Assembly (NCBI GenBank): GCA_965602015.1
Contig: OZ271918.1
Span: 2,720,001 to 2,784,000 of the forward strand
From: Salinispira sp.
GTDB taxonomy: Bacteria; Spirochaetota; Spirochaetia; DSM-27196; Salinispiraceae
Length of the DNA: 64,000 nt
Reading direction: 5' to 3'
Below, piece after piece: positions 27,001 through 36,000 of the stretch. A program made the position numbers. How positions within the stretch are numbered: the first letter of the stretch is position 1; every line of letters begins with the position of its first letter.

Positions 27001-30000
27001 CAGGGTATCCCGGTAGCGATGCCGAAGATCGCTGAGACGCCTCCCGTACTCCCTTGCAGCCCGGGTATCATGAATCGAACAGGGCCCGATGACCACCAGC
27101 AGCCTGCGGTCGCGTTCATCCATGATATTTTCGATGGCCTTTCGGGTTTCCGAAACCGTCCGCTCGCCGGTTTCGCTGAGGGGAATTTCCTCCATCAGTA
27201 TTGCCGGGGGAATGAGGGGCTTCAGCTGTTTGATTCTCAGGTCGTCTACGGGGAAATGCACTGTGGGTACTCCTGGGTACCGGCCGCAGCGGCCGGGGTT
27301 GAGGGTCAGGCGTTCTGGCGTTCCCGGGCGAATTCCAGGAAGTGATCGCCGCTCAAGGGTTTGCTGTGATAAAACCCCTGGATAATATCACAATTATTGT
27401 TGAGCAGGAAGTTCAACTGTTCGGCATTATCCACGCCTTCGGCCACGACCCGGTACCCCATTCCCTGCACCATTGAAATAATGGCCTGCACCAGGGCGCT
27501 GTTCTGGCTGTCGAAGGGAAGGTCTATGACAAACGAGCGGTCGATTTTCACCGCCGCAATGGGAAGGCGCTTGAGGTATGAAAGACTTGAATAGCCCGTG
27601 CCGAAATCATCAATGGAAAATTTGAGGCCGATGTCCGCCATGTTCTGAAGTTTGCTGATCAGACCGTCCTGATCCTCAACCAGGGAGTTTTCCGTTATTT
27701 CAAGGTGGAGCGACCGGGGGTCGAGACTGTTCATCCTCAGGTTCGAAATAAGAGTGCGCTGGAGCTTACCGTCCCGCAGCTGCCGGGGGCTCAGATTAAT
27801 GCTCACCGGAATGCTCAACCCCCTCGAACGCCAAAGCACCAGGGTTTTGCAGGCCTCTTCGATGACCCAGGTACCGATGGGGATAATCAGTCCGGTTTCC
27901 TCGGCTACGGGGATAAACTCCGCGGGGCTAACGGACCCCAAAACCCCATGGTTCCAGCGCAGCAGTGCTTCGGCTCCGACAAGATTGCCGGCACCGTCCA
28001 GCTGCGGCTGATAATGAAGGCTGAGCTCTCTGCGATCGACCGCCTGACGCAGGTAATTAATCATCTGGATCTTGCCCACCGCCCGCTCCTGCATTGCCGG
28101 AGTGTAAAAACGGTAGGTGTTGCGGTCGAGTTTCGCTTCCTGGAGAGCTTGATCGGCGTGACTGGTAATATCCGCAATTGAAAGGCCGTCCCGGGGGAAC
28201 ATGGAAATACCAATGCTGGCGCTGAGATAGACGCTGTGCCAATCCCATTCGAATTGCTTCTGAAAAACTTCAAGCAGCCGTTCACTTATCATCGCCACAT
28301 CAAGTTCACTGCCGACCTCGGAAATGAGAATTCCGAACTCGTCGCCTCCGGTGCGGTACAACCGTCCCTGATTCCCCAGGGAAGCGGAAAAGCGCTTCGC
28401 GATGGCATTAAGAATTTCATTTCCCGCGTCATTGCCGAGGCTTTCGTTGATATTTCCGAAATAATCAATGTCTATCTGAAGAACGGCGTGAAGCGGTGTT
28501 TGCCCCCCAATAGCGCCCTGGTTACGGCATATTTCATTCAGTGCGCTGAAAAACTGACGCCGGTTTTCCAGTCTGGTCAAGGGGTCATGGGTTTCCAGAT
28601 AGGCAAGTTCAGACTCGATATTTCTCGTACGGCTCGCCCGGTCCAGGTACTCCCTCACCAGAATGAAGGCCATCATGATGGTCAGCAGGGTGAAGGCTGC
28701 GCCGAGGAAACTCTGTTCCAGCCCTCTCACGGGGAACATGTCCAGAATATAGACGGTCAAAAGGAGGGCCAGGCCGACGCTGATGCTGATGCGCAGCAGG
28801 AGGTCCCTTTTCAAGCCCTTGCGGAACAGGCTTATGGCCATGTAGTAGCCGGCGCCTGAAACAAGCAGGGCGTCGCGAATCCAGGCAAGGACTCCCCGTG
28901 ATGCCACACCCTCAGGGCCAATCGTCACGATACCACGGGGAAACGCCGCCCCGGCGCCGATGAGGACGGCGGACGCGATCATTACGGTCACCAGAACCAG
29001 CTTGTCTAATCCGGTCATGACGGTCTGCGTCGCGGAGCTGATCAGGGAGCCTGTTTGCGCTACCTGTAATTCGGCGGTAAACAGATCCTCCCGACGGAGA
29101 TACACCAGCAGCGCGAACAGTAGAAGCATGGAATTAATGAGCAGGTGCTCCAGATTGTGAAGCCGCAATGACGAATAGGGAGTGCCGCCGGCGGCCTGAA
29201 ACAGGTTGTACATTTTAATCAATGGAAATGCGCCGGCCAGAGTGCTGATAAGCACAGCGACGAAATGGAACCACTTGCGGGATTTATACAGCAGGTAGCT
29301 GAAGAACGCCGTGGTGAAGAGGAGAAGCCCAATCTGTATGGACAGCCTGATTATGGCACCGATGCCGCCCGAGGAGAAAAAAGTATATATATTCACGAAA
29401 AAACGTTCCGATGAAGTACGCTGCCACCGCATCTCGCAGCGAAGGTATTTCCCACCGGCCTCCGCTACAAGTATCGGCAGCTATCCGGCAGAATGGCCGA
29501 ATAATATCAGATTTCTATTTCGATGTCACCGTTCGGATAGGAGCAGCAGCTCAGTATGGTTCCCGAATCAGCGCTCCGTCGGTCGAGAATATTCGGTTCA
29601 TCCATTATTACCCGGCCGGACACCAATGTGCAGCGGCATTCGCCGCATCGTCCGACCAGGCAGTTGCCGCGCAGCCTCCGGCCGGCCTTTGTGAGTCCGT
29701 CCAATACGCTCTCTCCGGGATTTATGGTCACGAACGAATTGTCGGGCAAAAGCCGCATTTCAGCCCTGTGAGCCGGACGCCGGGAGCGGCTGTGCGCCGG
29801 GGTGAATGCTTCCCGGTGAATGGCGAGATCGCTGCCCGCTGCGGACAGTCCCGCGCTCATGATTTCGACGAAATCCGCTCCGCCGCATATATACGCCGTG
29901 GACAAGTCTCCGCTGAGATCCTGCACATCGGAAACATCGATTCGCCGTTGGTGAACACCTACTCTTCCTGCCTCAAACGCAGACAGCCAGACGGGACTCC

Positions 30001-33000: not shown

Positions 33001-36000
33001 CGTCAGCCCCGATTTCCCAGGTATACACAGTGTTTCCCCGATGCGATCCGAGCACAAAGCTTCCCAACACCGCATCCCGATCAGCAATGGGAAGGGCATC
33101 CTCTGGACCCGAAATCCGATACGTCACTTCCCAGCGGTCGCTGTAAAAGATCCTGTCAGCCTGCTGGCCCTCCCAAATACCCAAAACGAAATACTCGGAA
33201 AAGACATCCGAAAAGCCTCCGAACAGCAGAACAACAAGGCCGATGTGGCCGATTATCAAGCCGAACGGCCGTCTGACACCGGGGAACCTTCTGATAATCG
33301 AGAAAAGCATATTGACCAGGAAGAGGGCCAGTATCAGCCCACCGCCGTACCAGGCATAGAATAGCTGCTGCTGAACTTGATAAATGCCAAGACGTATTTG
33401 AAGCAGGGTGCCGGTAAGTACGAGAAAAAATGACGCAACGAGGATAATGAGGGTGAAATTCATGGAACCGATGAAATCAGCTGCCCTACGGGAGAATCGC
33501 ATACGCTGCTTATTGTGCTTTTAGGGCTTGTGAGGGTCAAGGGATTTCACTACACGTGAGGCCATCCAGTGTTTACCTTATAGAGTGCCCGAAAGCTTGT
33601 TGAAAAACAGATTGTTGTCAGTGAATGGGGCAAGAGGAATGCCGTTAACCAGTTTTTCCCTCTCAGGCAACGGCTTCAACAAGCTTTGGGGTACTGTATG
33701 TCTCGCATAAGGAGTATGTCACATGAAAAAAATAGTGGTTGTTTTTATATTGCTTGTCTCAAGCGTGAGTCTACTGGCATCAGGAGGCAATGAAGACGCG
33801 AACGATGCGCTCTCTCAGGAGGAATGGCCCGATCAGATCCAGGGCATACCGATCACCAGGTTTGAGGACGATTTCGAGTATCCGATCCAGTATAGCGAAG
33901 AAGAGTGGAGACAGTTTCTCAGTGATTTCGACTACATTATCCTTCGGGAAAAGGGAACGGAACGGGCCTGGCTGAACAAGTACAACGGAAATAAAGAACG
34001 GGGCACCTATTACTCAAAGGCTACCGGCCAGCCGCTCTTTAGCTCAGAGACAAAATATGATTCGGGAACTGGCTGGCCGAGTTTCTGGGAGCCCATCGAT
34101 TCAAATGCAGTACATCTTATTCCCGATTATTCATATGGCATGATCCGTGTAGAAGTTGTCGATAGCTTAAGCGGCTCGCATTTGGGACATGTGTTCCCCG
34201 ATGGACCGGCACCAACAGGGCTTCGCTATTGCATGAATTCTGCTGCAATGATTTTTGTTCCTGAAGGAGAATCGCCCCCACAAGTAGGACTGAGGTAAGG
34301 AATCCCTTGATTTAGCTCCGGCTATGGGCATAGACTCTCAATCAGGAGGAACACATGCTCATAGCTTTGATTGTTCTTGGGTCCTTAATCGCCCTATTTA
34401 TCATCATCTATTTTATAGAACCCTTTGTTATCGCCCTACTATTTTCGTGGATACTGTCGCTATTCGTGAAAAATCCCCCGTATGTGGATGTGGAAGAAGA
34501 GTTTCCTGAAGGTAAACTGCTCAAAGATAACTGGAAGGTTATCAGGGAAGAGCTTGATGTGGTCTTAAGGAATATTGAGAACATTCCCAAATTCCACGAA
34601 GTTGACAATCTGCAACGCTTTATTTCTGCGAAAGATGATAAAGCATGGAGGACCTTTATTATAAAAGGCTTTAACGAATGGTTGGAGAACAATTGCGAAC
34701 AGGTGCCAAAAACTACTGAACTGATCAAACAGATACCCCGGGTATCCATGGCAATGTTCAGTATTATTGATGGAGGTAAACATATCCCTCCTCATTACGG
34801 CTTTTTCAAATCAGTGTTGCGCTACCACCTGGCAATGATCATCCCCGAGGGCGAATGCTACATACTGGTTGATGGCCAGAAGTACAGTTGGGTTGAGGGA
34901 GATCATGTTCTTTTCGATGATACCTACAAACATGAGGTATGGAACAAAACGGATCAACGACGAGTAGTTCTATTCATCGACGTCCTTCGGGAAAAGGGCT
35001 TGCCAAAATGGATGCAGGCGATCAACCGATGGATGTTTGGGATTCTTCGGAATTCGAAAAAGCTACAAAAAGCAGCAAAAAACGCTGAAGTGGCAAAGGA
35101 CATATCCGCATAGTTATTAACCTAGTACCTGGAAGCTTGTTAATACGTACGATTAGCCTACTGAGCACGAGTATGATTCGTCGGCTGGTCCCTTTTTCTT
35201 TTTTCAACAAGCTTTCAGGCACTCGAATCATTAGCTTCGATATAGCAACGCATTCGCCGGGCAAATATCAACTTGAATGTCCGCCGGTATTTTATTTTCG
35301 AGAGCCACACTCCATAGAAGGTGATCACCATAACCGTCGCTTGTACCGTTGACCCGATGGCCGTCGTGTTCAAGCCATGGGACGCTGCAGCTATCCGCCA
35401 GGTATCCATGGCTTCCGATGCTCAAACCGAGAGCTTTAACTGCTGCCTCTTTCACCGTCCAAATTGATAAAAACTTCTTCTTGTCCAAAGTGTCAGATTC
35501 GACAATCAACTTTTCGCTTGGGTTAAAATAATACTTCATCACTGCACGGATACTCGAGGGTAGCAATGAGCGTCTCGTGTCCTCGAGATCGACCCCGATA
35601 TGACACTCCGCACTCAGGCCGATAAGCAAAGCATCCGAGCGTGTGCTCATGTTGAAAAACTCGAACTTTTGTCCGTTCATCCTTCGAAGTCGTGGCTTAC
35701 CCAGAGGACCGTTCTCAATTTCATCTCCTATATCTAATGGTTCCATGCCCTGAGAACTAAACCAGCTATCCAGTCCGCTATACAGACATATCCTACGCCG
35801 TAAATAATCCTTAGCATCATCGGTTCTGACATAAGCCTTTGTCGCATCAAAATCAACCGGACGCGGCATGATTACCGGTGATAGGTTTGAAGCGTTCCAA
35901 GGATCAGGAATTAGCTCTGGAATATCAGTGAATAATAAAAGGGCGGGATCTTGAGGACTTTCACTTTGAATAAAAACATCTTCCCTGGCGGACATAGGTC

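Follow-up and report, generated by a model that had tools for sequence, protein, structure and literature searches.

A cytochrome c synthase of Salinispira fused to a flavin/[2Fe-2S] reductase tail: evidence bearing on a possible built-in haem reductase

How does a System II cytochrome c synthase obtain ferrous haem in a host that lacks ferrochelatase? Haem must be ferrous for attachment to cytochrome c; a haem reductase is known for System III (Cyc2p), the reductant that serves CcmF in System I is described as unknown, and for System II a direct supply of ferrous haem from ferrochelatase is assumed. In this study, we analysed a 64,000-nucleotide stretch of a Salinispira genome (the window, to which all coordinates refer) containing g02395, a gene in which a CcsB-CcsA synthase continues into a reductase. 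We favour, with a probability of about one half, the interpretation that this protein exports haem and attaches it to cytochrome c as a System II synthase, and that an accessory haem reductase tethered at its cytoplasmic entry works in a Cyc2p-like manner.

The gene is a single unbroken frame on the minus strand (33463..29507) that encodes 1318 aa, and residue numbers are counted here from ATG 33463. An alternative in-frame ATG at 33502 (minus strand) would yield 1331 aa and is the likelier start, since the nearest homologue has a matching N-terminal extension; the whole gene would then occupy 29507..33502. Just upstream of this ATG lies a candidate sigma-70-like promoter (33512..33540, minus strand), named as such from a 9/12 consensus match alone. 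A divergent msrB (SelR by Pfam; 33723..34298, plus strand) whose product has a hydrophobic N-terminus adjoins the fusion gene here and in genome G098, probably as a matter of family gene order. An earlier note on this DNA had described a fusion of CcsBA to FNR-like and 2Fe-2S domains, and the fusion is real: ResB (65-313), Cytochrom_C_asm (718-916) and Fer2 (1244-1310) score above their Pfam cut-offs, with NAD_binding_1 below, the named WWD, reductase and 2Fe-2S motifs are present in the sequence, and 27 other fused proteins rule out an assembly or read-through artefact. Twenty-three of these, with both CcsA and Fer2, were among the best 120 matches listed and four more came from further searches; the earlier note had counted two.

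CcsB and CcsA domains, a WWD domain with two periplasmic histidines, two membrane histidines and a CcsBA fold place the protein in System II, and the genome encodes CxxCH substrates for export as well as a thiol route of the CcdA/ResA kind. The ResB/CcsB part (residues 65-313; 32525..33271, minus strand; Pfam E 3e-14) supplies His73 in the third membrane segment, a putative membrane-haem ligand that is present in all eight full-length rows and corresponds to H77 of 7s9y by position and through the 25vk alignment rather than by direct alignment to 7s9y. It is followed by a second periplasmic domain (approximately residues 430-645; 31529..32176, minus strand), delineated by alignment to 7s9y and 25vk and by the structural model; fused CcsBA proteins of the Helicobacter/Bacteroides type have such a domain too. 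In the CcsA core (residues 718-916; 30716..31312, minus strand; Pfam and alignment), which holds the WWD domain at 30884-30922, His785, His878 and His916 align with H761, H858 and H897 of Helicobacter hepaticus CcsBA (7s9y), residues whose ligand roles are given in the available part of PMC3884852; His785 and His916, flanking the WWD domain, are invariant in 24/24 aligned rows. A model of residues 422-1318 (897 residues, pLDDT 84) matches 7s9y with Z 27.1 and rmsd 3.6 over 492 aligned residues. Haem export and ligation are activities predicted from the sequence and, since this is the only CcsA in the host genome, the protein must still export haem. Retention of the WWD domain and of the full set of four haem histidines counts in favour of a reductase that serves haem. 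H. hepaticus CcsBA (7s9y/7s9z) and the CcsA-named 25vk share the single ResB-CcsA chain, the WWD domain, the four histidines and the fold; relative to H. hepaticus CcsBA, the Salinispira protein adds a cytoplasmic tail of about 370 residues, and the available portion of a review of eight CcsB/A proteins describes no cytoplasmic domain that would set fused CcsBA apart (PMC10663686).

The tail begins after a single last membrane helix (residues 922-949; 30617..30700, minus strand), seen in the model (helix 501-528) and in the hydropathy plot. Because this helix comes after the periplasmic His916 and is followed by basic residues, and given the H. hepaticus topology in the accessible text of PMC3884852, the tail is strongly indicated to lie on the cytoplasmic side of the membrane. 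Its domains follow the order of PaaE and phthalate dioxygenase reductase: a flavin-binding beta-barrel (residues 956-1052; 30308..30598, minus strand) that keeps R-x-Y-S; an NAD(P)-binding domain (residues 1058-1221; 29801..30292, minus strand) that keeps G-x-G-x-x-P, C-G and E-x-F and carries a low-confidence Ala/Pro-rich insert at approximately 29984-30091; and, last, a plant-type [2Fe-2S] ferredoxin domain (29510..29764, minus strand) in which Cys1268, Cys1273, Cys1276 and Cys1306 are invariant in 24/24 rows. We take these motifs and the four cluster cysteines to have their usual reductase roles. The fold agrees with the order of domains, since the tail model matches benzoate dioxygenase reductase (Z 24.4, rmsd 2.3, 223 aligned) and all three domains match 7ylr and phthalate dioxygenase reductase (TM 0.67 by target); together with the match to 7s9y, these similarities favour haem reduction by the tail. 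An ESM Atlas search returned only generic reductase clusters, under 0.8. The best NCBIfam match of the tail is PaaE (E 1e-22, and 6e-52 for the copy in genome G034), at scores far below the curated cut-off of TIGR02160 (80 bits, and 177 for the G034 copy, vs 420.8). The protein thus shares domain order, fold and most motifs with PaaE, phthalate dioxygenase reductase and Hcr-type enzymes, but is joined to a membrane synthase, has no oxygenase partner nearby and lacks one motif serine. We predict, with moderate confidence, that the tail of the window copy is an active reductase.

The missing serine belongs to G-x-x-S/T, presumably the flavin-phosphate motif, which has Ser in 20/24 aligned rows and Trp in 3/24, namely the window protein (Trp1027) and its two nearest relatives. 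This replacement makes the NAD(P)H and flavin chemistry of the window copy less certain than that of its family, and it counts against haem reduction, as does the low identity of the NAD domain to that of the nearest homologue (35% vs 71% for the core; 30-35% within the three Trp-bearing proteins). An alternative is that the flavin/NAD half is decaying or rewired in this lineage, so that the tail is nearing loss or acts solely as a tethered ferredoxin that receives its electrons from other reductases of the cell. The Trp substitution, the diverged NAD domain with its insert, and FAD and NAD Pfam models that fall below cut-off here but above it in the G034 copy would all fit this idea, as would the finding that tail-less copies in the same family are sister to the most eroded tail, P0025. 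We nevertheless regard it as unlikely: a Trp common to three diverged proteins shows that the substitution became fixed and is no recent damage, all of the other motifs and all four cysteines are retained, and the model folds both the flavin and NAD domains with pLDDT mostly 80-90. Furthermore, relative to the nearest homologue, conservation reaches 57% in the flavin domain and 58% in the ferredoxin domain, on a level with the periplasmic domain (52%), which argues for haem reductase function.

The tail is rare and was inherited with the synthase. It occurs in 5/99 genomes of the order, in four genera, as previously reported, with one of the five copies cut by a contig end. The single frames noted in three other genera need one correction, in that the G034 protein recorded as 802 aa is interrupted by a run of N; other assemblies give it a length of 949 aa. 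In G034, CcsB is encoded by its own gene upstream. None of 160 generic CcsBA-type loci carries a tail (median 42 residues past the last haem His, vs 400 in the window protein), no further fused copy appeared among the matches listed from a phylum sample of 401, and none of the matches listed from scans of genome and metagenome contigs was a tailed locus. In the titles and abstracts of the searched literature, which mostly excludes subscription papers, we found no description of a CcsBA-reductase fusion. The trees, comprising a careful tree of 44 chosen rows (without near-duplicates, short-CcsA genomes and most outgroups) and a 97-row tree that is a quick tree only, give one gain and two nested losses of the tail (in G079, and in G094 plus G095). 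The tail and core trees recover largely the same groupings, which indicates inheritance of the tail with the synthase over a deep divergence and supports haem reduction. The tail is also dispensable, being lost from 3/27 rows of its own clade and unseen in 18/23 CcsA-bearing genomes of the order.

Other lineages offered neither donor nor partner. Stand-alone spirochaete reductases form a separate clade and so do not identify the source of the tail, and in the sister family f104, in which 11 genomes have a tail-less CcsA, the eight 16-kb regions examined held no reductase. A separate membrane-anchored reductase lies just upstream of ccsB-ccsA in 3/80 genome-scan loci, all from other phyla. We rejected it as a partner gene because it belongs to a different clade and, in 12 further genomes (stretches of 11-19 kb), has multihaem genes nearby in 11 and ccsA in none; for the same reasons it gives no independent support. 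Elsewhere, ccsBA was not seen to have a partner reductase at its side, which weighs against the haem reductase interpretation.

Scavenged haem is ferric. HemH, HemB, HemC and ChdC were all absent from the near-complete, one-contig host genome, so the host must import haem and is missing ferrochelatase as a source of ferrous haem. According to the available text of PMC10663686, CcsBA transports and attaches Fe2+ haem, proposed to come from ferrochelatase; a host without this source therefore speaks for a haem reductase. Haem auxotrophy is, however, insufficient as a reason for the tail. HemB was found in only 1/23 CcsA genomes of the order, a tailed one, and was absent from 18/18 tail-less CcsA genomes (several of them incomplete), while a Bacteroides control with Cytochrom_C_asm gave no HemB or HemH match. 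Haem import therefore does not need the tail, and that these organisms manage without a fused reductase counts against our interpretation, as does the lack of an identified haem importer, the tested parts of three FecCD-type systems all falling below haem-specific cut-offs.

The context of the G034 gene is also unfavourable. This copy, the one with canonical motifs among the contexts that were visible, lies directly before hemH, where ferrous haem should be at hand, inside a complete haem biosynthesis (hemA/B/C/E/L) cluster that also has a flavin amine-oxidase-family gene and a chlorite-dismutase-family gene. Such an arrangement suggests that the tail may act in the supply of haem or iron and not on haem bound to the synthase, either by providing Fe2+ for ferrochelatase or by reductive release of haem from an importer or chaperone at the entry site, and the available text of PMC10663686 proposes a contact between CcsBA and ferrochelatase. 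We consider a supply role quite unlikely, given that HemH had no match in 4/5 tail-bearing genomes, the host included, and that the fusion gene has neither a haem importer nor a chaperone next to it in G000, G023 or G098.

The substrates of the synthase appear to be few, as the earlier note had suggested. Its count of 10 CxxCH proteins among 3400 was not reproduced; six-frame stretches of at least 50 aa gave 93 CxxCH matches, of which six are in coding-like frames and two of these lie behind a membrane or signal segment, namely a P460-family lipoprotein (g02433) and a haem-c sensor kinase (g02434), the two credible exported substrates. Both track CcsA across the order (the P460 family exceeds its cut-off in 19/99 genomes, and CcsA is found in all 19). 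The tail-less G079, G094 and G095 keep the pair, so two losses with the same substrates retained argue against haem reduction, and a substrate-specific role of the tail was rejected because tailed and tail-less synthases alike go with this pair.

A sensor and its partner as sole substrates would also fit a transmembrane wire, in which cytoplasmic NAD(P)H would send electrons via flavin, the [2Fe-2S] cluster and both haem sites into the periplasm to re-reduce the sensor, the P460-family protein or MsrB; CcmF and NADPH oxidases would be the models for such a conduit. Membrane bis-His haem sites with a cytoplasmic FNR-type module resemble the layout of NOX, which is among the fold matches through its reductase part, and msrB is divergent here and in G098. 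We view this as very unlikely, since msrB is not adjacent in G023 or G034, the need to export haem persists, the two channel tryptophans used by CcmF are absent from CcsBA, and a comparison of CcsA cores (29 tailed vs 284 tail-less sequences) revealed no tail-specific Trp. CcmF shares a related WWD fold (6zmq, Z 22.0, rmsd 4.3, 275 aligned) and reduces haem before ligation, but does so with a fixed membrane haem, a two-Trp relay and a reductant that is unknown, whereas the channel of the fusion looks like that of ordinary CcsBA and a candidate reductant is built in. The earlier note's own alternative, reduction of the apocytochrome CxxCH disulphide, is highly improbable: System II requires thiol reduction, but nothing indicates that the tail performs it, the tail being cytoplasmic and its substrates periplasmic, a [2Fe-2S] domain carrying one electron, and a ccdA gene (g01911) lying beside a gene for a ResA-like CxxC thioredoxin, read from its motif (g01910), elsewhere in the genome, the presence of both having been noted before.

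For the haem reductase interpretation, we propose that NAD(P)H would reduce the flavin of the tail and the flavin the [2Fe-2S] cluster, after which the ferredoxin domain, swinging on its linker, would donate a single electron to ferric haem where it enters from the cytoplasm (the vestibule or the bis-His membrane site). Ferrous haem would then move to the WWD/periplasmic-His site and be joined to CxxCH of the P460-family lipoprotein and the sensor kinase. A precedent exists in yeast Cyc2p, a FAD protein that supplies the yeast synthase with haem reduced at the expense of NAD(P)H, according to the available parts of PMC3884852 and PMC3991850, and that is needed for some substrates only. By analogy, the tail may be a similar flavoprotein module. 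As described there, Cyc2p is a protein of its own, anchored in the membrane on the side where ligation takes place, with no mention of a ferredoxin domain, whereas our tail appears to be cytoplasmic and the WWD site is periplasmic, which makes it less likely that the tail is a Cyc2p but not that it works like one. We place haem as the electron acceptor with moderate to weak confidence. The earlier proposal of NAD(P)H-driven reduction of haem iron therefore stands as to architecture, side and substrates, while haem reduction itself is the best reading that we can infer, within the limits set by a dispensable tail, tail-less relatives without HemB, and Trp1027.

Altogether, this study describes a System II synthase with its own candidate reductase. 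There is a slim chance that a haem exporter here doubles as an electron wire, the builder of a haem-c sensor also resetting it, which, if true, would tie System II synthases to conduits of the CcmF and NOX kind. Being rare and dispensable, the module may represent a local answer and not the general rule. Nonetheless, a synthase with its own reductase in a ferrochelatase-less host would offer a direct test of where and how System II haem is reduced, with natural controls in the intact-motif G034 copy, the altered window copy and the tail-less orthologues.

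The reading that best fits the fusion protein, to which we give a probability of about one half, is that ferric haem, as the putative acceptor, is reduced at entry into the synthase. The tail, a reductase of about 370 residues C-terminal to CcsA, is anchored to the last helix and would carry electrons one at a time. According to PMC10663686, haem enters CcsBA from the cytoplasm to a bis-His site and Fe2+ haem is attached at the WWD site, ferrochelatase being the proposed donor. NAD(P)H-dependent haem reduction is described for yeast Cyc2p in PMC3884852 and PMC3991850. Among the eight proteins examined in PMC10663686, the fused CcsBA members have no extra cytoplasmic domain, whereas the window protein would have one.

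The minus strand carries the fusion gene (33463..29507, 1318 aa), a start at 33502 being likelier than that at 33463. The host is probably a spirochaete, one family member being labelled Spirochaetota and genomes of its class falling together with a record labelled Spirochaetia. ResB, CcsA and Fer2 domains score over the Pfam cut-off, and the interval between CcsA and Fer2, alignable to benzoate dioxygenase reductase, matches the PaaE, MmoC, GbcB and BenC models at E 1e-17 to 1e-22, every one far below cut-off. The structure predicted for residues 422-1318 from 59 sequences (pLDDT 84, pTM 0.71) matches CcsBA 7s9y at Z 27.1. Flavin, NAD and ferredoxin domains follow one another in the tail as they do in phthalate dioxygenase reductase, and the fold match to that enzyme spans all three.

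Invariant in 24 aligned proteins are the four cluster Cys, the Ser of R-x-Y-S, the second Gly of G-x-G-x-x-P, the Gly of C-G, and E-x-F. The G-x-x-S serine is kept in 20 of the 24; Trp takes its place in three, the window protein and the two most closely related to it, and Ala in one. These motifs presumably have their usual roles. Compared with its nearest homologue, the core (the CcsA-containing part) is 71% identical and the periplasmic domain 52%, with 57% for the flavin, 35% for the NAD and 58% for the ferredoxin domain. Together, these identities and motifs point to a tail that is conserved, yet with a drifted NAD half. That the flavin/NAD half is decaying in this lineage, or that the tail serves as a ferredoxin only, is an unlikely alternative, though the foremost one.

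HemB, HemH, HemC and ChdC have no match in the host genome (one contig, 99.7% complete), with controls positive in 7 to 11 of 14, and the host must therefore import haem; parts of three FecCD-type systems were tested and no haem importer was identified. HemB and HemH are likewise absent from three other tailed genomes (G023, G097, G098). Haem auxotrophy makes a haem reductase useful in the host and leaves the distribution of the tail unexplained, because HemB is also absent from 18 of 18 tail-less CcsA genomes of the order and because in G034, whose tail motifs are canonical, the fusion gene sits immediately upstream of hemH in a haem-synthesis cluster. A tail that serves iron or haem supply is less probable again.

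By alignment, H785, H878 and H916 of the window protein correspond to H761, H858 and H897 in the H. hepaticus CcsBA, which PMC3884852 describes as haem ligands. H73 is likely the CcsB-derived partner histidine, and all four are invariant wherever aligned rows cover them. Since one helix lies between periplasmic H916 and the tail, known topology would place the tail in the cytoplasm. Tail and synthase forming a transmembrane wire across that membrane is doubtful, ranking just behind a supply role. A tail feeding thiol reduction is very improbable. In PMC8112865, in vitro reactions are begun by adding dithiothreitol.

The host has no Cytochrom_C_asm match besides the window protein, and only two coding-like CxxCH proteins there stand behind a membrane or signal segment: a sensor (HAMP, Hpt, HATPase) and an adjoining P460-family lipoprotein (contig 2794871-2797689), downstream of cheY-like and cheX-like genes. 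The whole run of cheY-like, cheX, sensor and lipoprotein genes lies outside the window (L101:8872-12616, contig 2794871-2798615). The sensor domain weakly matches 3b47, a methyl-accepting chemotaxis protein domain (E 0.64, CxxCH aligned), and the lipoprotein matches 7ead (E 1e-7). P460-family matches above cut-off turn up in 19 of 99 genomes, each of which also has CcsA; the sensor domain occurs in 20, 19 of these with CcsA; and G096, a complete genome of the same genus, has none of the three. Building this pair seems to be the main purpose of System II in the order, tail or no tail. Several relatives have the same sensor domain fused to adenylate cyclase, again with a P460-family gene next, and the two genes seem to form a conserved haem-c pair for sensing gas or redox state, its output being swappable. 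In G092, without a CcsA or P460 match, the sensor domain is broken over two frames (G092:C1:280559-281195), consistent with decay following synthase loss. G023 has two P460-family genes and, beside its tailed CcsBA, a second, short Cytochrom_C_asm gene (G023:C25:789-1367, L055). The CxxCH frame at window 7436-8044 belongs to an RseC/MucC-family protein and is not evident as a c-type cytochrome.

Other CcsA plus Fer2 proteins numbered 23 among the best 120 matches listed (ResB is part of the chain in 7 and absent from it in 16), and two later searches each added two members, one of the first two ending without Fer2. In the second of these searches, an unindexed one of 1.84 billion representatives, fusions made up 15 of the best 150 matches, the next match following a drop from 357 to 263 bits; none of those 150 was a fusion from a different CcsA lineage. 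Of the order's 99 genomes, 5 carry the tail. In a careful core tree, a 27-row tail clade split from 17 tail-less outgroup rows (support 100/99); three tail-less rows nest within this clade, and the starred branches require three changes. If the root falls with the outgroup, the tail would have been gained once and lost twice. In two genomes with such nested copies (G094, G095), the ORF stops shortly past CcsA at the gene position of the tailed G098, and tblastn found no tail remnant in the stretches examined. A quick tree placed 25 tails on one side of a branch from 35 stand-alone reductases (support 97). Stand-alone flavin/NAD/[2Fe-2S] reductases of ~385 aa are common among spirochaetes (L009, L010, L035, L115-L135), often with a ~450-aa gene upstream (the only such gene that scored belongs to the flavin amine-oxidase family); two of them are followed by a DegV-type gene. 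A membrane-anchored flavin/NAD/[2Fe-2S] reductase of ~420 aa, found in 13 of 301 genomes, occurs in Verrucomicrobiota and one Acidobacteriota record (L174:223-9674, L182, L208, L309-L318, L320), in clusters that also encode cytochromes with 5 to 10 haems, a cNMP-binding/4Fe-4S protein and proteins without a Pfam match.

The G034 fusion (L031, L106; G034:C17:1-34840) lies within a haem and respiration island of hem genes, a chlorite-dismutase-family gene, two cytochrome bd subunit I-like genes, a UbiA prenyltransferase, a flavodiiron-like protein and a P460-family gene. In the window, a lipid cluster (34355-44142) encodes an Asp/Arg beta-hydroxylase-family protein, phosphopantetheinyl transferase, FabF, a FabA-like protein and a class I/II PLP enzyme, is interrupted by an IS21-family istA/istB pair (38359-40367), and is possibly an amino-acid-linked lipid pathway. 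FabF, phosphopantetheinyl transferase, FabA-like and PLP enzyme genes also adjoin the G098 fusion gene.

The titles and abstracts of the literature searched held no description of the CcsBA-reductase join; automated JGI names for some family members already give both functions. Synthase and reductase modules are each known already, and their joining would be the new part. To this we add the size of the family, a tail that would have arisen once and been lost twice, the absent haem synthesis, the link to the sensor/P460 pair and the altered flavin motif.
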